Assembly (NCBI GenBank): GCA_041180005.1
Contig: JBEGSF010000005.1
Location: 6,158 to 70,157, forward strand
DNA: 64,000 nucleotides
Source: Verrucomicrobiota bacterium
Lineage (GTDB): Bacteria; Verrucomicrobiota; Verrucomicrobiia; Opitutales; UBA953
Reading direction: 5' to 3'
The translations under genes and the position numbers were made by a program. Numbering within the stretch: position 1 is the first letter of the stretch; each line of letters begins with the position of its first letter. Shown piece after piece: positions 39,687 through 50,565 of the stretch. The notes below the pieces were generated by a model. That model had not been told where the DNA came from, did no database searches, and worked only from the letters and a program-made list of their open reading frames with translations.

Positions 39687-40541
39687 TCAGGCCGGACCGA
39701 AGCCGAGCAGGTCGATGCCGAGCTGCTTGGCCCGCGCGATCACGGCGGGCTTGTCGATGAGGATGACCGCGTCGGCTTCGAGGGCGGCCTTGGCGACGCC
39801 GCCTTCGGCCATGCTCTCGAGCGTCTTGAGTCCGAAGCAGGGGACGTCGAAGCGCCAGTCCTGGGCATGCTTCGACGTCTTCGTCAGCAGCATCTCCTTG
39901 CCGCCCGTCTGGGCGCAGCGGCGGAGCATGTTGTCCGTGCCTTCGAAAGCTTCGACCGCGATGACGGTGCCTTTGGCCGTGACGACCGACTGGCCGACGT
40001 CTAGCCGGGCCATCTCGCGGGCCATGCGGGTGCCGAACTCGAGCTGGTCGTCGCCGACGCCGCAGCTCCAGCCGGTCATGCAGCCGGGCGAGGCGAGGTG
40101 GTCGTCCAGGAAGACGCGCGCGTCCAGCATGCGGACGCCGACCTTCTCGATCTCGGCGGAGATGGCGCCGAAGATCGTCTCGGCGTTGCGCTCCTTGAGC
40201 GAGGCCATGAGCGCGATGAGTTTCAGGTCGGGCACCATGCCCGTGAAGAGCTTGCGCGGGGTGACCTGGCCGGCCATCACCGTGCCGGCTGCGTCGAGTT
40301 CCTTGAGCGCGTCGAGCATCTGGCCGAGCTTGCCGACCGGGATGGCGCGATGGTCTGCGGGGTCGAACGTGGCGATGAGGGCCGGGTCGGTCTCTTCTTC
40401 GAAGGAGACCAGCTTGATCTTGGCGCCGCGGGCGCGGGCGCATTCGACGAGCAGGGCGGGGTAGCGGCCTTTGCCGGCGATCACCACGACGGTCTGCGTC
40501 GGAGCGAAGTCCGGGGGGAGGAATCGGGAGGCGACCGCCAT
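39687..40541 (-). CDS. lpxI: UDP-2,3-diacylglucosamine diphosphatase LpxI (DUF1009)
   Basis: 'VVVIAGKGRYPAL', 'DVGQSVVTAKGTVIAVEAFEGTDNMLRR' and 'RFDVPCFGLKT'. ATG at 40539-40541. The longer ORF to 41207 is antisense to nadD. Confidence 0.85.
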   Translation of the reverse strand: MAVASRFLPPDFAPTQTVVVIAGKGRYPALLVECARARGAKIKLVSFEEETDPALIATFDPADHRAIPVGKLGQMLDALKELDAAGTVMAGQVTPRKLFTGMVPDLKLIALMASLKERNAETIFGAISAEIEKVGVRMLDARVFLDDHLASPGCMTGWSCGVGDDQLEFGTRMAREMARLDVGQSVVTAKGTVIAVEAFEGTDNMLRRCAQTGGKEMLLTKTSKHAQDWRFDVPCFGLKTLESMAEGGVAKAALEADAVILIDKPAVIARAKQLGIDLLGFGPA

Positions 40542-40622
40542 GGGGGCAGTGTTTCGGCGGAAGGCCTCGGGCTCAAGCCTGCTTTGGGTTGCCACCGGCT
40601 CGGCGTCGGAACGTAATGAGTC

Positions 40623-41213
40623 ATGCCTGCTGCCATCGGCATCCTGGGTGGGACCTTCGATCCTCCGCATGCGGGACATGTGGCGGCGGCCGTGGCCGCG
40701 CAGAAGCAGCTCGGCCTCGACCAGGTGCGCGTCATCCCGGCGGGTCAGGCTCCGTTGCGCACGGGCGCCCCGGTGGCTTCGGCCGCCGATCGCGTCGCGA
40801 TGTGCCGTCTCGCGTTCGCGGAGCACCCGTGGGCCGTCGTCGATGAGCGTGAGACCATGCGGGCCGGCACGAGCTGGTCCGTTGATACCGCCCGCGAGCT
40901 CGCCCGGGAATTCCCGGACGCCCTGCGGGTCTGGATCCTGGGCGCGGACCAGCTTGCCCGTCTCGACCGTTGGAAGGACGTGGTCGAACTCTGCGGCCTC
41001 GTCGAGTTCGCGGTCCTCGCGCGCGACGGGATCTCGACCCAGCCGCCGGCATCCTTGGCCGCGGTCATCCGTCTGACCGTGCTGCAGGCGCCGCCCGTGC
41101 GCATCTCGTCGACCGCGCTCCGCGAGGCCATGCGCCGCGGTGATTCGCCCCGAAACGGCTTGCCCCTCGGGGTCGCCCGCCACATCGATGAGCGCTCCCT
41201 TTACCAAGCCTGA
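40623..41213 (+). CDS. nadD: nicotinate-nucleotide adenylyltransferase
   Basis: 'IGILGGTFDPPHAGH' and 'ISSTALR' motifs. Confidence 0.9.
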   Translation: MPAAIGILGGTFDPPHAGHVAAAVAAQKQLGLDQVRVIPAGQAPLRTGAPVASAADRVAMCRLAFAEHPWAVVDERETMRAGTSWSVDTARELAREFPDALRVWILGADQLARLDRWKDVVELCGLVEFAVLARDGISTQPPASLAAVIRLTVLQAPPVRISSTALREAMRRGDSPRNGLPLGVARHIDERSLYQA

Positions 41214-41215
41214 CC

Positions 41216-41770
41216 ATGTCCGCCCTTAAAAAGAAGACCACGAAGAAGACCCCGGCCCGTCCGGTCGCCAAGTCCAAGGCTAAGGCCAAGGGCGGCGCTT
41301 CCGCCAAGGCCGGCAAGCCGGCGGCTCGTCCGGCTCGTCGCATCCTTCCGGCCGTCCCGCCCCTCAAGGCCAAGAGCCGAGGAGAGAAGGCCGCCGCCAA
41401 GCCGATGGTCGTCCTCCCGAAGCTCCCGGCGCACCTCGTGGCCGCGATCCGCGCGCTCGACGACAAGAAGGCCGTCGAGATCCGCGTCCTGGAGATGGGC
41501 CAGATTTCGTCCGTCGCTGATTTCCTCGTGATCGCCACCGGTACTTCCGAGCCTCACCTGCGCGCCCTGCGTATCGCCCTCGAGCAGGCGCTCGATGAGG
41601 TCGGCGTGACGTCCCGCTCCGAATCCCAGCGCGACAGCGGCTGGACGGTGGTCGACGCCTTCGACGTGCTCTTCCACGTCTTCCGCGAAGACATCCGTAA
41701 GAGCTACGCCCTGGAAGCCCTCTGGAAGGACGGACTGGACATCCCGGTCTCGGCCATCCTGAAGGCCTGA
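41216..41770 (+). CDS. rsfS: ribosome silencing factor RsfS (iojap) with Lys/Ala-rich N-terminal extension
   Basis: 'DDKKAVEIRVLEM...ADFLVIATGTSEPHLRAL...GWTVVDAFDVLFHVF'. It starts 2 nt after the nadD stop. Confidence 0.85.
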   Translation: MSALKKKTTKKTPARPVAKSKAKAKGGASAKAGKPAARPARRILPAVPPLKAKSRGEKAAAKPMVVLPKLPAHLVAAIRALDDKKAVEIRVLEMGQISSVADFLVIATGTSEPHLRALRIALEQALDEVGVTSRSESQRDSGWTVVDAFDVLFHVFREDIRKSYALEALWKDGLDIPVSAILKA

Positions 41771-41922: not shown

Positions 41923-42540
41923 TCAGGGGCGCGGCTGGACGATGATCCAGAAGCACCAGAGCCACAGAAGCAGGCCCAGGCAGGCCAGGACGAGGGCGAG
42001 CCCGGACTGGGTCTGGCGGATTTCAGCCAGGCCTTCCTGGTCGAGGGTGCGGCCGATCCGGCGCACGAGGGCGACCGGAAGGAAGCAGCCCAGAGCCGTC
42101 GTGAAGGTGAGCAGGATGAAGAGCGAGATCGGCGGGGTGTCCGGGGCGACGATGTGCCAGGCGTAGACCGCGAGCGCGAACAGCGGAGGCAGCAGGAAGG
42201 TCGAGCCGCACCAGAGATAACCGGCGCGCACGGTGCGTTCGAGGTTCTCGCCGGCGGCCGAGCGGGCGGTGTCGGGCATGAGCCCCGAATGTTCGTCGGC
42301 GACGAAGCCGGGCGGAGGCGGCGGCGCGTCGCCCGCCGAGACTTCGGCGGTGGGCGCGATCACGCGCGTCAGGCCGGCGCCGCGGAGGTAGTCGCGCAAG
42401 GTCATCCAGCGTCCGTCGACTTCGATGTTGTGCAGCAGGCTGATCTCGCCGGCGCGGAGGAGCTCCTGCACGCGGGCGAGCGGGAAGGGGCCGGTCACGG
42501 CGCCTTTCCAGCGGAGTCGGAATGCGTTGGTCGGAGCCAT
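41923..42540 (-). CDS. GYF_2-like N-terminal domain + three TM helices (gene 4 of the GTPase operon)
   Basis: 'FRLRWKGAVTGPFPLARVQELLRAGEISLLHNIEVDGRWMTL' resembles a GYF_2/DUF4339 domain. Three hydrophobic helices lie in the C-terminal half. Confidence 0.7.
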   Translation of the reverse strand: MAPTNAFRLRWKGAVTGPFPLARVQELLRAGEISLLHNIEVDGRWMTLRDYLRGAGLTRVIAPTAEVSAGDAPPPPPGFVADEHSGLMPDTARSAAGENLERTVRAGYLWCGSTFLLPPLFALAVYAWHIVAPDTPPISLFILLTFTTALGCFLPVALVRRIGRTLDQEGLAEIRQTQSGLALVLACLGLLLWLWCFWIIVQPRP

Positions 42541-42542
42541 GA

Positions 42543-45494
42543 TCAGAGGTCGCGCCCTTGGAGCAGGGTCTCCCAGCCGCCGTCGGGCGGATTCAATCCC
42601 TTGGGGATGCCCGCGGCTTCGGCCGCTTCGGCGACGGTGCCCGGGTAGCGCAGGAGGGGCGAGAGCGGCGCGCCGTCGGCGACGCGCTTGGGCAGGCCGT
42701 CCTCGCCGACGCGGAAGAGCACCGCGACCTTGCCGTCGTTATCGAGGCCGTAGAGCGCGCTGCCCTTGGCGGCCTCGCGCAGGCGGGGCGTGCCGTCGCG
42801 TCCGACCATGCCGGCGAAGACCACGCGGCGGGTGCGCAGCTGCGCGAAGGTGGCGCGCCAGAAACGGGCTTCCTCGGCGTAGCCCGCGCCGCCTTGCGGT
42901 ACGAGGAACGCACGGAGTTCGCCCTTCACGTCGGCCCACTTGTCGCGGAAGAGGTAATCGTAGGGCTCGAGGCCGTTCTGCGTGATGCGACGGAGCTGTT
43001 CGGCGTCGCGCTGCGCGCTCGGGGAGAAGATCAGGCCCCAGGCGTCGGGACGGCCGCCGGCGAGCTTGTACAGTTCCTGGAGCTGGAACGCGCGCAGCTC
43101 AGGGTAGGGCGAGTCGCTGCGCCGCACGCGCTCCATCGTGCGCAGCGGTGGCTCGAGGAGGCGGCCGGAGCGCGCGTCCTGGAAACGGGTGACCTGGCGG
43201 ATGAACTCGAGCTCCGGGATGGGGGCGAGCGCGGTGAGCTCTTCGCCGTTGCGGAAGCCGTTGTTGAATTCGCGGCGTCGCCAGGCACCTTCGGCGACGC
43301 TGCCGTCGCGGTTGAGCTCCTTGGCCTTCTGCGTGAATTCGACGCCGTCGTTGAAGGAGTTCTTGGTCTCCGCGACCTCGCCGACGACGTAGACCGAGCG
43401 TCCCGGAGTGACGCCGCGGACCGAGTAGAGGCTGAGCGTCGCGCGGCGCAGGCTGTCGGCGAGCGAGGTGTCCGAGAGGCGACGCAGCAGTCGCTGTTCG
43501 ACCTCGGTCAGCACGGCAGGGTGGAAGACGCCCTGAGGGTCGGCGGTCGCGGCCGCGTCCCACATCGCGGCCACGCGCGGGGCGAGGACGGGGCGGGGCA
43601 GGGCCTGGAGCGACGGGGCGCGCGTGAAGACGAAGGAAGCGCGGGCGCCGAGGTCGGTCTTCTCGCCGGCGGTGTTGGCCGAGGCGTCGGCGAGCGCGGC
43701 GAGGTAGCTGGTGAGGTCGGCCGCGGCCTCCAGCGTGCGGAGGGCGGTGGCGATCTTGCGGTCGCCGGCCAGGCGGATCTCTCCGCGGTCCGCGGCGGCC
43801 GCGGCGGAGTCGAGGTCGCGGTCACCCGCTTCGCCGAGGATCTTCAGCAGCAGGCGGAGGCGTTCGAGGGTCTCCATCGCGCGCACCGGGTCGGCGATCG
43901 CGACGCTGTCGCCGACGGCCTTGTTGAGGGCAGCCGTGCGGACGGCGAGTTCCTGGCGGAGCTTGCCGAGGTGGTTCTGGCTGGCCGCGGCCAGGCCTTC
44001 CGGATCGGGCAGCACGGCCTTGAGCCGCTCGCGCAGCCCCGGTCCGGCTTCGCCGAGGGACTTCAGATAAGCCGCGCTCCGACGGGCGACTTCCGCGACG
44101 TTGCCGTCGGTCACGCCGGACTTGCCGGTCTCGGCGAGCTGGCGGGCTTCGAGGCGGAGCTTCTGTTCCACCGCGATCTGCTGGGCGAGCGTCTCACGCA
44201 ACGGGCGGGCGGCGGCTTTGCGGCGTTCCAGTTCGGCCGCGCCGGAACCCCCGCGTTCGAATTCATCGAGCGCGCGGAGGGCGGCGTCGTGGTCGTAAAG
44301 TTCGACGAGGCGCGTGGCTTCGGAGAAGCGGCCGAGCGTCTCTTCCTCCTGCTGGCGCTGGAGGTTGACGGCGACGACGACGCCCACGATCACGAGGAGG
44401 CCGACGACCCAGGAGGAGGTCAGCAGCAGGTAGCGGCGGTTGAGGCGGGTGCGCGTGGCTTGGCGCAGGGCGCGGGCTTCGCGCAGGAGGCCTTCGGGCA
44501 GCCTTTCGGCGTGAGGCGTCGCGCGTTCGAGCCAGGCGCTCAGGCGCACGATGAGGATCGCGGGCGAGGAACCGCGGGCGGCTTCCTGGCCGAGCACCTG
44601 CCACTCCTCGAGGAGGCTCTCGACGGCGGAGCGGAGGGCGGCTTCGGCTTCGGCGGTCGCGGCGAGTTCGCCGGCCCAGGCTTCGAGCTCGGCCATCTGG
44701 GCGAGCAGTTCGGGCGAAAGGTTCAGCTGGTGGTCGCGTTCCAGCGCGCGCGTGCGGCCGAGGGCCGAGGCGCAGGCTTCCCAGTGGCCTCCGTCACGGG
44801 CCAGCGCGGCTTCGGCGACGAGGCTGATGGCCTGTTCGGCGGCGTTGGCGCGGAGCCAGGCCGCGCGACGGGCACGGGCGTCGTCCCAGCGCGGTTCGCC
44901 GGAAAGGTCGTTCGCGCCGAAGCGCTCCATGCGCTGCATGAGCTCGACGGCCTCGGCCGGGCGGCCTTCGGCGAAGAGCGCGCCGACGCGACCCAGCGAC
45001 TCGCGGAGGAACTTCGCGGACAGGCGGGCGAGTTCGGACTGCGCGTTCGGGTCGTCGGGATTGATGCGGACGATCGAACGCAGCACCGCGAGCGCGCGGT
45101 CTTCGTCGCGGCGGCGGATCGCGTCGCGGTAATCGCGGTAGAGCGGGTGGCTCTCGCCGATGACGCGTCCGTAGAGGCTTTCGACGGCGAGCACGTGCTG
45201 ACCGTCGAGCGGGAAGCCGGCCGGAAGGCCGCGTTCGCGGCAGAGCGCGTGCCAGCGGTCGGATTCCGCGAAGCTCAGCAGGGCGCAGAGGCCGAGGAGA
45301 TCGGGGTCGGCTTCGGCGGCTTGGAAGGCGGCGTGTTCGTTGCCTCCGCGCACGAGCGTGGCGCACTGCTCGAGGCGTTCGCGGGCGCGTACGCACAGCG
45401 CGGCGTATTCGCCGGCCAGCGAGCGGGCTTCGAGATCAGGCGTCCCGAGCTCGAGCTGGCCGCGGATGCGGGCGATGAGGCGTTCGGCCTGCAT
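42543..45494 (-). CDS. 983-aa single-pass membrane protein, helical N-terminal half, unknown function (gene 3 of the GTPase operon)
   Basis: ATG start. One TM 'YLLLTSSWVVGLLVIVGVVVAV' (residues about 355-377). 3-nt gap to the upstream gene and 2-nt gap to the downstream gene. Confidence 0.75.
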   Translation of the reverse strand: MQAERLIARIRGQLELGTPDLEARSLAGEYAALCVRARERLEQCATLVRGGNEHAAFQAAEADPDLLGLCALLSFAESDRWHALCRERGLPAGFPLDGQHVLAVESLYGRVIGESHPLYRDYRDAIRRRDEDRALAVLRSIVRINPDDPNAQSELARLSAKFLRESLGRVGALFAEGRPAEAVELMQRMERFGANDLSGEPRWDDARARRAAWLRANAAEQAISLVAEAALARDGGHWEACASALGRTRALERDHQLNLSPELLAQMAELEAWAGELAATAEAEAALRSAVESLLEEWQVLGQEAARGSSPAILIVRLSAWLERATPHAERLPEGLLREARALRQATRTRLNRRYLLLTSSWVVGLLVIVGVVVAVNLQRQQEEETLGRFSEATRLVELYDHDAALRALDEFERGGSGAAELERRKAAARPLRETLAQQIAVEQKLRLEARQLAETGKSGVTDGNVAEVARRSAAYLKSLGEAGPGLRERLKAVLPDPEGLAAASQNHLGKLRQELAVRTAALNKAVGDSVAIADPVRAMETLERLRLLLKILGEAGDRDLDSAAAAADRGEIRLAGDRKIATALRTLEAAADLTSYLAALADASANTAGEKTDLGARASFVFTRAPSLQALPRPVLAPRVAAMWDAAATADPQGVFHPAVLTEVEQRLLRRLSDTSLADSLRRATLSLYSVRGVTPGRSVYVVGEVAETKNSFNDGVEFTQKAKELNRDGSVAEGAWRRREFNNGFRNGEELTALAPIPELEFIRQVTRFQDARSGRLLEPPLRTMERVRRSDSPYPELRAFQLQELYKLAGGRPDAWGLIFSPSAQRDAEQLRRITQNGLEPYDYLFRDKWADVKGELRAFLVPQGGAGYAEEARFWRATFAQLRTRRVVFAGMVGRDGTPRLREAAKGSALYGLDNDGKVAVLFRVGEDGLPKRVADGAPLSPLLRYPGTVAEAAEAAGIPKGLNPPDGGWETLLQGRDL

Positions 45495-45497
45495 GGA

Positions 45498-47627
45498 TCA
45501 ACGGAATTCAAGCAGACGAGGTCCGGCGGCGCCGCCGGCATCGACGGCCTGCACGACCCAAGGGGCGCCGGCTTCGATGAACCTGCCTTCGCGGAAGGCT
45601 TTGCGGCGGGCGGCGACTTCCTCGTAAGGAGGCGAACCCGGGCCCTGCTTGGACTCGAGACGGAGCAGGTCGGTCTCGAGCAGGGAGCGGGTGGCGCGGA
45701 CGGACGGAAGGTCGCGGTCTGGGAAACTGTGCTCGGCCGGGTAGAGGCCGACCTGGCCGTGGGCCCAGACGAAGGCGTTGACGGCGGACTCGGCCCAAGG
45801 AGCCGGACGGATCACGCCGGTGTCCACGTCGTAGCGGAGCGCGCCGGCGCCGAGGTCGAGCGGGCGCAGCTGGGCGGCGTCGCCGATCAGGGCGAGCACG
45901 CGACGGTCACCCTTGGGCATGATGATCTCGACGAGGACGTTGGCGCTCGGCGCGCCTTCGGCGGCGGTGAAGTTGAGGGATACGACGTTACGGCGGGCGC
46001 CGAGGCCGATGCCGATCGCAGGCAGCTTGCCCGGCTCGGGGTTGGATTCGAACCAGGTCGTCTGCTGGGTCACCCGGATCTCGCCGTTGAGATAAGGCGT
46101 GCGGTCGTCGCGCTGGTGCGGCGTGACCAGCGGCAGCACGCGGAGGCGGATCTGCGCGCTGGTGCGGGACGAGGCGCCCGCTTCCTCGGCCCATTTCGTG
46201 AGACGATCCACCGCGGAGCGAGAGAGGGAGAACTGCGCTTCGATAGGCGACTTCGGTCCGATGTCGGAGAGGTGCCACTGGCCGGGCGCGACGAGGACGG
46301 GGCGGACGTCGAGCGTGGGGAGGCGCAGCGTGCGTTCCTTGATTTCGACGAGCTGCTTCCAGGCGGCGTCTTCGGGGACGTCGAGGAGCTTGCCGACGCG
46401 CATGACCTCGAGGGTCTCGGCGTGCGCGGCCTGGCTGGCCTTCGGGTCGTCGAGGATGTCGCGTCGTTCGATCTTGGCGAGGAGCTGGCGGACGGCACCG
46501 GCGGAGTAACCGTTGAGGATGCGCGGAAGGATCTGCTCCTTGTAGTTGCCGAGGCGGGCAGGGGAGCGCTCGTTGGTCTCAAGCCAGAGGCGCGCGGCGG
46601 GCAGCATGTCGCCCGTCTCGAGCAGGCTCTGGATTTCGGTGACGGCGCGGTTGACCCGGAGGATTTCTTCCTGCTGCGCGAGGTCGGAAGCGGAAGGCGC
46701 TGGAGCGACGTTCGCGACCGGCTTCGGTTCGGGCGCGGGGTCCGGGGAGCGATTCGAGAAGAGGAAGGCGAGGCCGGCGGCGACGACGAGCAGGACGCCG
46801 CCCACGATCCAAGGCGTGGCGGAGCCGCCTTGCGGAGCTGAGGGCGCGGCGCCAGGGCGGCGTGTGACCGCGATCGGCGTGGCCTTCGGAGCAGTCAGTC
46901 CGGCGGCTGCCTGACGGGCGAGGTCGCCGGTCGGCGCAGGCAGCGTGCGCGCTTCGACGAAGTCGATCGTCGCGGGGCGTTCGGCGTGGGCGGCCCAGAC
47001 GAAGCCGGCTTCACCCGTGATCCGGGCGTCGGTCGTGAACGTCGCGTGCCAGGCGGCCTTGCCGATGAGGGCGGAAGATTCGGCGAAGAGCTTCAGCAGC
47101 GTCGCGTTGGCCGGAGGATTGCGTAGGCCCAGCGTGGTCGCGCCGGTCGCGTCGACGAGCCACGCGGCCTTGGCGCCGGTGCCGGTGGTCTCGCGCCACG
47201 TGACGGCGGGGGACAGCGGCGTGGCGGCTTCGAGGGTCAGCGGGCGATTCTCACCTTCGAGCCAGGCGGGGGCTCCGCTCCATTCGGCGAGCCAGCCTTT
47301 CCAGCGGGCGGCCAGGGCGGCGGGCGGAGCGAGGAGGGCGGCCTCTTCGGCGGTGAAGATCAGGTGATGGGCGAGACGGTTGTCGCGTTGCGTGTAATCG
47401 AGGCCGCGGGCGACGAAGCGGGAGAGCACGAACCAATGACGGTCGCCGGCTTCGAGGGTGCGGAAGGTGAACGTCTCTCCTTCGGCCTGCTCGTGCGGCG
47501 TGCCGACGGATTCGAGCAGCTGGGCCAGACGATCCGGCACGGCGCGGTGGCGGGCGACGGTGCAATAGCCCGAACGTCCCGGGGTAAGGCCTTGCGGAGC
47601 GGAGGTGAAGACGAGTTGGAGGGGCAT
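45498..47627 (-). CDS. 709-aa membrane protein with GAP1-N-like N-terminal domain (gene 2 of the GTPase operon)
   Basis: 'MPLQLVFTSAPQGLTPGRSGYCTVA...LDYTQRDNRLAHHLIF'. TM 'PWIVGGVLLVVAAGLAFLF' (about 272-290). The start overlaps the GTPase stop (TGATG). Confidence 0.75.
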   Translation of the reverse strand: MPLQLVFTSAPQGLTPGRSGYCTVARHRAVPDRLAQLLESVGTPHEQAEGETFTFRTLEAGDRHWFVLSRFVARGLDYTQRDNRLAHHLIFTAEEAALLAPPAALAARWKGWLAEWSGAPAWLEGENRPLTLEAATPLSPAVTWRETTGTGAKAAWLVDATGATTLGLRNPPANATLLKLFAESSALIGKAAWHATFTTDARITGEAGFVWAAHAERPATIDFVEARTLPAPTGDLARQAAAGLTAPKATPIAVTRRPGAAPSAPQGGSATPWIVGGVLLVVAAGLAFLFSNRSPDPAPEPKPVANVAPAPSASDLAQQEEILRVNRAVTEIQSLLETGDMLPAARLWLETNERSPARLGNYKEQILPRILNGYSAGAVRQLLAKIERRDILDDPKASQAAHAETLEVMRVGKLLDVPEDAAWKQLVEIKERTLRLPTLDVRPVLVAPGQWHLSDIGPKSPIEAQFSLSRSAVDRLTKWAEEAGASSRTSAQIRLRVLPLVTPHQRDDRTPYLNGEIRVTQQTTWFESNPEPGKLPAIGIGLGARRNVVSLNFTAAEGAPSANVLVEIIMPKGDRRVLALIGDAAQLRPLDLGAGALRYDVDTGVIRPAPWAESAVNAFVWAHGQVGLYPAEHSFPDRDLPSVRATRSLLETDLLRLESKQGPGSPPYEEVAARRKAFREGRFIEAGAPWVVQAVDAGGAAGPRLLEFR

Positions 47628-49354
47628 CAGGAATGGGGGGTCGCGGGGAACATCGCCGGCGAGGACAGGTGCAGCAGCCAGTAGAGGGGCTCCTCCACGT
47701 GGGCCGGAGCGAGGCGCTGCGGATCGGGAGCGATGCGGCCCTTGTTCGGACCGGCCCCGATCATCACCGGCGTGTGGCCGAAGGAGGTCGCGGCGAAGAA
47801 GCAGATCTGGTCGGCGAGGGATTCCGCCGAGGCGACGAGGCCGGGGCAGAGATGGAGCAGGACCTCGCGCACGCGGTCGGAATTGCGGCGGACGGCGGCG
47901 AGGTCCAGCGCGCCGGCGCGGATCACCGGTTCGAGCGGCGAGCTGAGGAGCTTCTCCCAGGTGTCGGACTTGCCGACCACGAAGGCGAGCGGCGTCGCGA
48001 TGCGCTGGTCGTGCGCGAGGCCGAGCACGCGCTTCATGCGCGTCTCCATCTCGGCCAGGATGCTGTCCTGCTGGTCGACGCGGCCCTTGAGCGAGAGCTG
48101 CGGATCGTCGACGCCGACGAGCTTGGCCTTGAAGCGCGCGTTGGCGGTCGGGTCGAAAAGGAAGATCAGGCCGCTGGAGGTCGCGACGTGCATCGCGCCG
48201 GGCGAGTCATGGATGTCGATGCCCGGCTCGAAGTGCTCGCCGGCGTTGTCATACAGGATGACCGACGTATCGAGCGCCGGCTGGCCTGGGCGGCTCAGCG
48301 AATAGATGAACGGACGGGGCAGGGAGACCATGCGGCCGAGGCGCGGGAGCTTCTCGTAGGTCGCGCCTTCGAGGGCCGTCTTGCCGAGCAACGCGTCTTC
48401 CGGCGTCGCCGCGGAGAAGAGCGTGTTGCGCATCTGGTTGAGCAGCATGTTGCCGCTCGGGTCGCCGTCCTTGAACGCCAGCGAGAAGTCCTCGGGCAGG
48501 CGGTCCTGAAGCACGCGCGTGAGCACGGCGAGGTAGTAGGATTTGCCGGCGCTCGGAGCGCCGATGAGCGAGATGATGCGGTGCGGACGCTCGAGGTAGC
48601 CGGGCGGCAGCTGACGGCGGCAGTGCGGGCAGGCGATGTCGGTGCAGGCCAGGCCCATCGGATCGAGGGCGAGCCCTTGGTCGTTGAAGCGCGTGGGCTG
48701 GAAGCGGAGGCGCGCGTCGGAGCCTAGGATCGGATCGCCGCGCAGGTTCTCATGCACCGCGATGCTCAACGCGTCGCCGGCGTCGAAGCGCGTCCAGCAG
48801 ACCGGGCACACGTGCGCGCCTCGGTTCTGTTCGGCGGCGAGGAGCGCCGTGTTCTGCGGGCGGACCTCCGTTTCTTCCGGAGGGGAGAGGAGCGGAGCGA
48901 TCTGCGCGAGGTTGAAGCCGACCTCGAGGCCGACGGGCGTGCAGGCGAGCGCTTCGGTGGGCAGGCCGGAGCGGGCGGCCGCGGCGAGGAGTTCCGTCGC
49001 CGGATGCTCGCCGAGCTGGTCGCCGGTGCGGGCGTCGAAGAGCACCCAGAGGTCGGTCCGGATGAAGGCGAAATCCTGCTGAGCGCGGGGGGCCACGACG
49101 AGCAAGGCGGAGGGTAGCTGGACGGTCGTCGGTTCGGTGACCGCGAGACGCTGGCTCAGCGGGGCGCCGTTCACCAAGGCCACGCCGGCGCCGGAGGGCT
49201 CGAGGCCGACGGTCTCTCCCGCCGGGACGAGGGACAGGGCGGGTTGGGGCGCGTCGCCCGGGAGGGCGGCCGGCAGCTCAGCGGTGAAGCCTTTTTCGCC
49301 GCTGAGGCAATTGACCCAGGAGAGGGTGGGGGTTTTCTTGCGGGTCGTGAACAT
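47627..49354 (-). CDS. Zn-ribbon-containing P-loop GTPase (TRAFAC-type motifs), gene 1 of the operon
   Basis: CPVC (183-186) and CPHC (242-245). Walker A 'GAPSAGKS' (265-272), 'DNAGE' (369-373) and 'GKSD' (461-464). Confidence 0.8.
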   Translation of the reverse strand: MFTTRKKTPTLSWVNCLSGEKGFTAELPAALPGDAPQPALSLVPAGETVGLEPSGAGVALVNGAPLSQRLAVTEPTTVQLPSALLVVAPRAQQDFAFIRTDLWVLFDARTGDQLGEHPATELLAAAARSGLPTEALACTPVGLEVGFNLAQIAPLLSPPEETEVRPQNTALLAAEQNRGAHVCPVCWTRFDAGDALSIAVHENLRGDPILGSDARLRFQPTRFNDQGLALDPMGLACTDIACPHCRRQLPPGYLERPHRIISLIGAPSAGKSYYLAVLTRVLQDRLPEDFSLAFKDGDPSGNMLLNQMRNTLFSAATPEDALLGKTALEGATYEKLPRLGRMVSLPRPFIYSLSRPGQPALDTSVILYDNAGEHFEPGIDIHDSPGAMHVATSSGLIFLFDPTANARFKAKLVGVDDPQLSLKGRVDQQDSILAEMETRMKRVLGLAHDQRIATPLAFVVGKSDTWEKLLSSPLEPVIRAGALDLAAVRRNSDRVREVLLHLCPGLVASAESLADQICFFAATSFGHTPVMIGAGPNKGRIAPDPQRLAPAHVEEPLYWLLHLSSPAMFPATPHS

Positions 49355-49411: not shown

Positions 49412-50059
49412 ATGTCACCACGATTATGGGTCGACTCCGACCTGTTTTCCTCTACCCAACCCGTACCCATGGAGACCGAAGCCGACCAGTCCGCCTTGGA
49501 CCGAGCCCGCCAGGGGGATCTGTCGGCCTACAACGAGCTGGTCCTCAAGTATCAGGGTCGCATCTTCGCCAAGGTCTTTTCGCTGCTCCGTAACCGTCAG
49601 GACGCCGAGGAAATCACCCAGGACACGTTCATCCGGGCCCATCGGGTCCTGGCTTCTTTCCGCGGAACCGCCACTTTCTCGACCTGGATCCACCAGATCG
49701 GCACCAATCTCGCCCGCAATCGCTACTGGTACTGGCGCCGCCGCAAGCGTGACCAGTCCATGTCCCTCGACGCCGACCTCGGCGACGACCCCGGCGCGAC
49801 CCTGCACGACATCCTTTCGGACGGCGCCCAAGGCCCCGGCCATGAGGCCCAGCATAACGAATTCGTCCACAAAGTGGCCGAGTGCATGGAACAATTGAAG
49901 CCGGAACACGCTCGTATCCTGACGATGCGCAACGTCCGCAACATGTCGTATGAAGAGATCGCCGAAGACCTCGGCCTCTCGATCGGCACGGTCAAGAGCC
50001 GCATCAACCGCGCCCGCGAAGCCCTGCGCGAACTCATGGGAGAGGAGTTCCGAGGATGA
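49412..50059 (+). CDS. ECF-type RNA polymerase sigma factor
   Basis: Region 2 'YNELVLKYQGRIFAKVFSLLRNRQDAEEITQDTFIRA' and region 4 'MSYEEIAEDLGLSIGTVKSRINRAR'. An alternative ATG lies at 49469. Confidence 0.88.
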   Translation: MSPRLWVDSDLFSSTQPVPMETEADQSALDRARQGDLSAYNELVLKYQGRIFAKVFSLLRNRQDAEEITQDTFIRAHRVLASFRGTATFSTWIHQIGTNLARNRYWYWRRRKRDQSMSLDADLGDDPGATLHDILSDGAQGPGHEAQHNEFVHKVAECMEQLKPEHARILTMRNVRNMSYEEIAEDLGLSIGTVKSRINRAREALRELMGEEFRG

Positions 50060-50565
50060 GCGCCGCCGAGTTCGAATCCCTCGTCGCCCTTTTCCTGGAA
50101 GGCAACGCCTCCCCTGAGCAGGTCGCCCGTCTCCGCGCCGCCCTCAGCGCCTCTCCGGCCCTGCGCGCCCGCTTCCAAGCCAGCGCCCGCCTGCACAAGG
50201 CCCAGCTCGCCTGCCTCAGCCATCGCGAAGAGCGTTCGGCGGCCGGCGTGATGTCCTGGCTGCACGCCTATGGCCAGCGCATGGGACGTTCGTTCGCCCA
50301 TCTCTGCCTGCTCGCCCTCGTCTTCGTCGAACTGCAGGTGACCATCCCGGTCGAGTATTCCGGTTTGCTCGCCTACGTCGAAGCGCAGGTGCCCGCCGAA
50401 GAACCCGTCCTGGGTTCGGCCGAGATGCCGACCCGCCTGATCACGGACATCGTCCAAGAGGCGGATCTTTCGCAGGCCGTCGAAGTCCCCGAGCTCACCA
50501 TGCCCGTCCTCGTCATGCCCGAGATGGTCATGCCGACCGATGAGCCCGCGGCCATCGAGGTCTGA
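50056..50565 (+). CDS. putative anti-sigma factor
   Basis: ATGA overlap with the sigma gene. The N-terminal 'FESLVALFLEGNASPEQVARLRAAL' resembles an anti-sigma N-terminal helix. One hydrophobic segment. Confidence 0.6.
   Translation: MSAAEFESLVALFLEGNASPEQVARLRAALSASPALRARFQASARLHKAQLACLSHREERSAAGVMSWLHAYGQRMGRSFAHLCLLALVFVELQVTIPVEYSGLLAYVEAQVPAEEPVLGSAEMPTRLITDIVQEADLSQAVEVPELTMPVLVMPEMVMPTDEPAAIEV

Follow-up and report, generated by a model that had tools for sequence, protein, structure and literature searches.

The closest described counterparts of the locus considered here are the GAP1-N2-type GTPase-centric (DO-GTPase) systems, where GAP1 stands for GTPase-associated protein 1. Their definition comes from a computational study by Kaur, Burroughs, Iyer and Aravind (2020, eLife 9:e52696; PMC7159879), and their domains are covered by the Pfam families PF20013, PF20014 and PF19993. 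In that description a conserved Glu in the Walker B motif is the hallmark of the DO-GTPases, 60% of which carry one or two N-terminal zinc ribbons, and a pair of GTPases is present in only 38% of the systems. Single zinc-ribbon GTPases and GAP1 proteins fused to C-terminal transmembrane (TM) segments were reported for the GAP1-N2 systems, a GYF protein fused to a TM-rich region was found in some planctomycete systems, and GAP1-C and an FNIII-repeat protein were treated as typical components. Verrucomicrobiae are listed among the main host phyla, and the GAP1-N2 systems were tied to a multicellular habit (PMC7159879). The present system is a cassette of four genes from an Opitutales bacterium (Verrucomicrobiota; assembly GCA_041180005.1, 2.57 Mb, 96% complete), located in a window of 64,000 nucleotides (contig JBEGSF010000005.1, positions 6,158 to 70,157; coordinates given below without a locus or genome label are those of the window). 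Its second gene, a minus-strand open reading frame (ORF) of 709 aa at 45498-47627, is present as the first-pass annotation of this DNA had described it, and is discussed first.

The GAP1 protein, its domains and its topology

From two N-terminal motifs, the first-pass annotation had noted a likeness to the GAP1-N domains. This assignment is borne out by Pfam, in which PF20013 (GAP1-N2) matches residues 4-120 with an E value of 1.6e-16 and a score of 61 bits (cut-off 24); residues 1-220, where the likeness had been placed, do therefore have profile similarity to a GAP1-N family. The same family is matched by all 56 diverse homologues that were scanned. Both motifs, LQLVFTSAPQGLTPGRSGY (residues 3-21) and DYTQRDNRLAHHLIF (residues 77-91), fall where the family is most strongly conserved, and when the N-terminal modules of 55 diverse homologues are aligned, no variation is seen at S9, G20, D77, R81, H88, P102 or W112. 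An exhaustive search found 2546 related clusters at 50% identity, 1341 of them at E<=1e-10, and in most of these relatives homology is limited to residues 1 to about 260. The protein is very probably the GAP1 component of a GAP1-N2-type system, in the membrane-anchored form that is usual in Verrucomicrobiota.

The AlphaFold2 model of the protein, built on a 144-sequence alignment, has a mean predicted local distance difference test score (pLDDT) of 89.1, with 539 residues at 90 or above, and its domain boundaries are clear: an N-terminal module (residues 1-245), a disordered Pro-rich linker (250-276), a TM helix (277-291), a second disordered Pro-rich stretch (292-304), a helical bundle (313-438) and a beta-rich domain (444-709). 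The GAP1-N2 domain, assigned to the cytoplasm, covers residues 1-130 (47238..47627, minus strand), where pLDDT is mostly above 90. It is followed by a second conserved cytoplasmic domain, residues 131-245 (46893..47237, minus strand), in which W144, L178, E183, W193, F197 and W211 are conserved across the 55 diverse homologues. PF20014 (GAP1-M) is matched by 12 of the 55 N-terminal segments of homologues, with a best E value of 4.3e-5; neither the GAP1 protein itself nor anything else in the genome matches it at E<=10, and at the same threshold Pfam returned only noise for residues 115-270. Residues 131-245 are read as a putative divergent GAP1-M, recoverable only through homologues.

Hydropathy places the single hydrophobic helix of the protein at residues 273-291 (46755..46811, minus strand; hydropathy 2.35), between Pro-rich disordered linkers (246-272 and 292-312) with a Pro content of 22-33%; in the model, pLDDT falls below 50 on both sides of helix 277-291. 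Beyond it lie the five-helix bundle, residues 313-438 (46314..46691, minus strand; pLDDT 92-98), which varies more than any other globular part among the more distant homologues, and the lineage-specific beta-rich domain, residues 444-709 (45501..46298, minus strand), both of which are predicted to be periplasmic. In the model, the TM helix, the bundle and the beta-rich domain hold the position of GAP1-C. Pfam at E<=10 found nothing in residues 295-709, 295-450 or 440-709, and the Protein Atlas gave nothing useful for this C-terminal part. Full-length similarity that includes the beta-rich domain is confined to a handful of clusters; the weak Ig-V-like Foldseek matches of the protein presumably belong to this C-terminal part. 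The sole NCBIfam result, an LAETG match on the TM/linker region, is spurious.

The annotation had further described the protein as transmembrane and largely extracytoplasmic. The first claim agrees with the one helix at 273-291, and the second is supported by several observations on the protein and its relatives. There is no signal peptide ahead of the N-terminal part of 272 aa, and the partner GTPase has no TM helix. In 120 single-TM homologues, Lys plus Arg average 3.79 before the helix and 2.50 after it, with the excess on the N-side in 73 and on the C-side in 25, so that the N-in/C-out orientation is the one preferred by the positive-inside rule. Furthermore, the domains that follow the TM helix in relatives are Ig_3/I-set, Laminin_G_3, RCC1 and FGE-sulfatase. 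On these grounds about 59% of the protein is placed in the periplasm; its C-terminal 418 aa are probably periplasmic (N-in/C-out), and "largely extracytoplasmic" is a reasonable description. Membrane association extends across the operon, with one TM helix in the GAP1 protein, one in the 983-aa protein of gene 3 and three in the GYF-like protein of gene 4.

The model also gives a lead on the fold of the N-terminal domain. Its core runs beta-beta-alpha-beta-beta-beta-alpha-alpha (strands 3-10, 20-27, 51-60, 63-76 and 82-91; helices 32-40, 93-96 and 102-108), a predicted order that is that of longin domains and close to PAS-like folds. Foldseek, queried with the full-length model, returned weak matches to the type VI secretion system regulator TagF (9t0n; probability 0.98, E 9.7e-3, 121 columns), to the Lst4 longin domain (4zy8; probability 0.69, E 0.14) and to PAS domains (probability 0.5-0.8). 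A search of literature titles found nothing relevant on TagF as a longin or DENN fold, and no such claim is made for TagF here. Sequence profile searches of the PDB with the full-length and N-module alignments gave compositional matches only; among these, ZipA and VirB10 matched on the Pro-rich/TM region, and a lectin match reached only E 0.44.

The partner proteins

On the minus strand of the window, four tightly packed ORFs form an operon in which the GAP1 gene is the second. The stop codon of gene 1 overlaps the GAP1 start codon (TGATG), and the later junctions have gaps of 3 nt (GAP1/gene 3) and 2 nt (gene 3/gene 4).

Gene 1 (47627..49354, minus strand) encodes a cytoplasmic GTPase of 575 aa, composed of a beta-rich N-domain (residues about 10-155), a four-Cys zinc ribbon and a TRAFAC G domain (residues 256-575). 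In the alignment the four Cys residues, C183, C186, C242 and C245, are invariant and make up one ribbon; so are the Walker A motif GAPSAGKS, the Walker B motif D369-N-A-G-E373 with the conserved Glu, and the G4 motif GK[SC]D, here GKSD. In its model (pLDDT 77.7), Foldseek recovers TRAFAC GTPases at probability 1.0, including atlastin, EF-Tu/eEF1A, Arf, GBP, YcjX and MglA. PF19993 (DO-GTPase2) is matched at E<=0.01 by all nine aligned members of its clade, and some homologues that are 82-85% identical to it carry the precomputed PF19993 label. Judged by these profiles, the zinc-ribbon GTPase appears close to DO-GTPase2, in a clade that straddles the PF19993 cut-off. The 96%-complete genome holds no second copy, so the state is not a "double" one. 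The annotation was right in naming a single zinc-ribbon GTPase as the partner, given one ribbon, an adjacent gene that overlaps the GAP1 start and no second copy; its premise that GAP1 proteins pair with double GTPases fails against the published 38%.

The N-terminal region of the GTPase (about 10-155; 48890-49325, minus strand) consists of a well-modelled beta-rich domain followed by a small alpha/beta unit, neither of which matches Pfam; the ratio of nonsynonymous to synonymous substitution rates (dN/dS) is 0.18 for this region vs 0.09 for the G domain.

Gene 3 (42543..45494, minus strand) encodes a protein of 983 aa with a TPR-like cytoplasmic part (residues 1-355), a TM helix (356-374) whose N-side flank is strongly Arg-rich, and a predicted periplasmic part of about 600 residues. 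Its only Pfam signal is a weak TPR_14, and no Pfam family was found in nine homologues; Protein Atlas neighbours are Verrucomicrobiota hypothetical proteins and gave nothing useful. BLASTP detected no paralogy between the predicted periplasmic regions of this protein and of the GAP1 protein. Gene 3 co-occurs with GAP1 across Opitutales families.

Gene 4 (41923..42540, minus strand) encodes a protein of 205 aa with a GYF_2-like N-domain and three TM helices. The protein itself has no GYF match in Pfam, and PF14237 (GYF_2) is matched by five of its eight syntenic homologues (best E 4.6e-12); there is one GYF unit, not a pair. A homologue at L023:1885-2982 (minus strand) is 365 aa long, and there a membrane domain of the RDD family (E 6.8e-21) replaces the short three-TM tail.

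Inheritance, proposed mechanism and alternative roles

The cassette is present as a single copy in the 2.57-Mb genome. It is placed between rsfS/nadD/lpxI and extracytoplasmic function (ECF) sigma/ptsI/his genes, with no mobile elements or known defence genes flanking it. The cassette keeps its synteny with all flanking core genes in another member of the genus (locus L014) and in a closer relative (locus L038, GCA_049454755.1). In comparison with the latter, the GTPase gene has a dN/dS of 0.129, GAP1 one of 0.137 (dS 0.35), the 983-aa gene 0.119 and the GYF gene 0.081, and the ratio is 0.05-0.15 for seven neighbours (six housekeeping genes and the ECF sigma factor gene; the anti-sigma gene excluded). 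Along GAP1, in the same comparison, the ratio is 0.073 in the N2 domain, 0.079 in GAP1-M, 0.38 in the linker/TM region, 0.074 in the bundle and 0.146 in the beta-rich domain. By this measure the cassette is evidently under purifying selection like its neighbours.

Within Opitutales, PF20013 occurs in 37 of 151 genomes, usually with one or two matches per genome, and its presence is near all-or-none within families: three families have it in 7/7, 7/7 and 7/7 genomes, and many others in none. The GTPase, GAP1, the 983-aa type and the GYF-TM protein are found together in several Opitutales families, and the order GTPase-then-GAP1 is kept in eight related loci. PADLOC gave no match at E<=1 for any of the four operon proteins. 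These observations fit a chromosomal module that is inherited and constrained and whose surface parts change fast, and they do not fit a mobile defence island; an immune role would be compatible with such a module.

A mechanism can be proposed from the gene set, the domains and the topology trend. The cytoplasmic N-module of GAP1, with its predicted longin/PAS-like core and the invariant D77, R81 and H88, would dock on the GTPase and set its nucleotide state. GAP1 and the 983-aa protein would bind an envelope or extracellular cue with their large, predicted periplasmic parts and relay it via their single helices, and the GYF/TM protein may act as a membrane-side adaptor or output, possibly by binding the Pro-rich juxtamembrane linkers. 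We somewhat favour the GAP1-N2-type identity and this trans-membrane GTPase switch taken jointly; that its role is envelope-state signalling is close to an even call, with doubt slightly the stronger. The locus looks more like an inherited chromosomal envelope-sensing switch than a mobile defence element.

A more specific proposal builds on the fold. Longin and roadblock domains are established GTPase platforms in MglB, SRX, DENN and folliculin/Lst4 (PMC3521125, PMC3747258), and neither kind of domain is mentioned by Kaur et al. (PMC7159879). GAP1-N2 plus GAP1-M might be a bacterial longin/DENN-like guanine nucleotide exchange factor or GTPase-activating protein of the cognate GTPase, and the Opitutales cassette a vertically inherited trans-envelope sensor that reports the periplasmic or surface state to the GTPase switch, may pass the signal on to the neighbouring ECF sigma pair and does not act against invaders. 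This proposal is speculative and, at present, rather doubtful; if true, it would reveal a prokaryotic pathway from membrane receptor through longin domain to GTPase, of a kind otherwise known from eukaryotic membrane traffic.

Several points weigh against the reading of the locus as a GAP1-N2-type envelope switch. The longin-like fold is a lead that draws on topology and on weak full-length Foldseek matches (E about 1e-2, TM-scores at most 0.43). The GTPase falls slightly short of the PF19993 cut-off of 27 bits, with 23 bits over its full length and 25.9 when the G domain is taken by itself. Two components that Kaur et al. treat as typical are missing: no GAP1-C is detectable by Pfam (E<=10) in residues 295-709, and no FNIII was found, by sequence, in the four operon proteins or in nine homologues of the 983-aa protein. 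The TM flanks of the GAP1 protein itself are uninformative, with two Lys/Arg on each side. In a sister genus, GAP1-N2 proteins were found without the GTPase, which means that the two do not always go together. Between members of one genus, GAP1 is 51% identical, the GTPase 71.5% and the sigma factor 94%, and across genera the post-TM half of GAP1 diverges much faster than the GTPase; moreover, the gene-wide dN/dS is compatible with positive selection at a few sites. Finally, the literature searched contains no experiments on any member of a GAP1-N2 system, and only Kaur et al. (2020) name these domains.

That faster divergence of the C-terminal half can also be read in favour of the published interpretation of the family (PMC7159879), according to which the locus would be a dedicated conflict system, acting against invaders or through abortive infection. 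Here a phage or another invader would be detected at the envelope by the variable periplasmic domains and the GTPase-GAP1 pair would set the threshold, with the GYF/TM protein, or some other membrane component, as the effector that damages the membrane. The swapping of post-TM regions among relatives (Ig, LamG, RCC1, FGE-sulfatase) and the patchy distribution of PF20013 across the phylum (21 of 201 genomes) are what such a system might be expected to show; the near all-or-none presence within families, the one copy per genome, the identical synteny between core genes in two relatives and dN/dS values equal to those of the housekeeping neighbours are set against it. The lack of a PADLOC match, of flanking mobile elements or known defence genes and of a recognisable toxic effector domain points the same way, as does the host, an Opitutales bacterium with a small genome (2.57 Mb), whereas PMC7159879 links the GAP1-N2 systems to multicellularity. 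A dedicated conflict system is considered unlikely, although it is a serious candidate.

The annotation had also suggested a distinct variant, that is, a new architecture of GAP1 systems that spans the membrane and is paired with a single zinc-ribbon GTPase. By Pfam, the operon's own proteins have no GAP1-M, GAP1-C or FNIII, and the GTPase is single and just under the DO-GTPase2 cut-off, which might speak for a new variant. However, this suggestion is unsupported because each of the features named was already part of the 2020 description (PMC7159879) and a TM helix is the norm among relatives: it is found in 120 of the 122 nearest full-length cluster representatives (drawn from the best 150 by a minimum length of 400 aa), exactly one in 119 of them, at a median position of about 330. 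As GAP1-M is in addition recoverable via homologues, a new architectural variant is improbable. That the motifs match by chance or by composition in a spurious high-G+C ORF is a reading for which the G+C content of the region (70-72%) and the long spurious ORFs in other frames might speak; it is already refuted by the Pfam E value, the 2546 homologous clusters, the dN/dS of 0.137 at a dS of 0.35 and the confident AlphaFold model.

The convergent rsfS (41216-41770, plus strand) flanks the cassette on one side. Its other flank is formed by a divergent ECF sigma factor gene (49412-50059, plus strand; Pfam), overlapped by the gene for a zf-HC2 anti-sigma factor (50056-50565, plus strand; Pfam), and beyond this pair follow ptsI and then his genes. 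The GTPase gene has the ECF sigma gene as its divergent neighbour elsewhere in the genus (L014, L038) and in a single further family (L018-L020), and this adjacency is absent at L022, L023, L026 and L029. A functional link of the operon to the divergent sigma/anti-sigma pair is possible. A promoter and terminator scan gave signal at background level.

Some neighbouring genes call for separate comment. In comparison with L038, the anti-sigma gene (50056-50565) shows 64% identity, a dN/dS of 0.30 and a dS of 0.89; identity reaches 97% for the ECF sigma gene, and dS lies at 0.11-0.35 in the ten remaining genes of the comparison. It seems that the anti-sigma factor has been replaced locally or evolves very rapidly. 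The LpxI-domain ORF (39687-41207, minus strand) is over-long, with 506 aa, and the LpxI of relatives has 284 aa; its upstream part overlaps a plus-strand CTP_transf_like (nadD-type) gene (40623-41213), which precedes rsfS. The 506-aa ORF is an artefact of ORF calling at high G+C.

Other arrangements of the GAP1 genes were observed in related genomes. In the sister genus (same family), GAP1-N2 proteins of 467-494 aa are encoded at L015:9801-11204, L016:9815-11284 and L017:8773-10257, the first between aspartokinase and L,D-transpeptidase genes, with no match to a partner gene within 10 kb at any of the three loci. The search for a cognate GTPase was negative in two of these sister-genus genomes, and G103 yielded a weak N-domain match only; these are orphan GAP1 proteins. 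In one Opitutales family (G045:C2:270969-272732 vs L021:9827-12901; also G004 and G092) the GTPase is encoded apart from GAP1, about 70 kb away in G045, and GAP1 still adjoins the 983-aa-type gene, after ispH (LytB). At L026:10292-12802 (minus strand) a gene for a GH3 glycosidase with an Fn3-like domain splits the GTPase/GAP1 pair, and at L029:5714-6427 (plus strand) the GTPase gene is preceded, on the same strand, by a gene for a MotA/ExbB-family channel.

Comparison with known systems

The contribution of this locus is added detail to a family with existing Pfam models and a published architecture (2020). The new details are a putatively divergent GAP1-M, the lack of a detectable GAP1-C or FNIII, a predicted longin/PAS-like core with a predicted periplasmic helical bundle and beta-rich domain after it, a single-copy syntenic cassette and purifying selection. 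Because no GAP1/DO-GTPase system has been tested experimentally, any tractable example is of some value, and this one is compact (four genes), single-copy and clearly under selection; the model also gives clean construct boundaries, with residues 1-245 cytoplasmic and 313-709 predicted to be periplasmic. Its housekeeping-like evolution raises the question of whether all GAP1-N2 systems are conflict systems.

Two other kinds of system resemble the locus in part. With the longin/roadblock platforms (MglB-MglA, SRX-SRbeta, DENN, folliculin/Lst4-Lst7) and TagF it shares the predicted core order beside a cognate GTPase, together with the Foldseek matches to TagF and Lst4; unlike them, it has no sequence similarity to any solved structure, and the structural scores, from a full-length query, are weak. 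Like the bitopic envelope sensors that work with ECF sigma/anti-sigma factors, the GAP1 protein is single-pass, with a large, probably periplasmic part and a cytoplasmic signalling domain, and a divergent sigma pair accompanies it in two Opitutales families. It differs from those sensors in having no anti-sigma homology, in the lack of sigma adjacency in other families and in its output, which would here be the GTPase.

The systems of Kaur et al. differ from the present one in some respects, as GAP1-M is seen here only via homologues, no GAP1-C or FNIII protein is detectable, there is one GYF unit, and the third component belongs to an uncharacterised family of 983-aa TPR-like/TM proteins. Furthermore, the cassette is chromosomal and syntenic, evolves like housekeeping genes and resides in a host that is not evidently multicellular. 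The likeness is nonetheless extensive: an N-terminal GAP1-N2 domain, encoded directly downstream of a TRAFAC GTPase with the Walker B Glu and a zinc ribbon; a GAP1 protein with a C-terminal TM helix and probably extracytoplasmic domains; a GYF-like, TM-rich partner; a Verrucomicrobiota host; and variable, non-enzymatic domains after a constant core. A GAP1 protein with one TM helix is the norm for its subfamily, and the details described here fall within a known kind.

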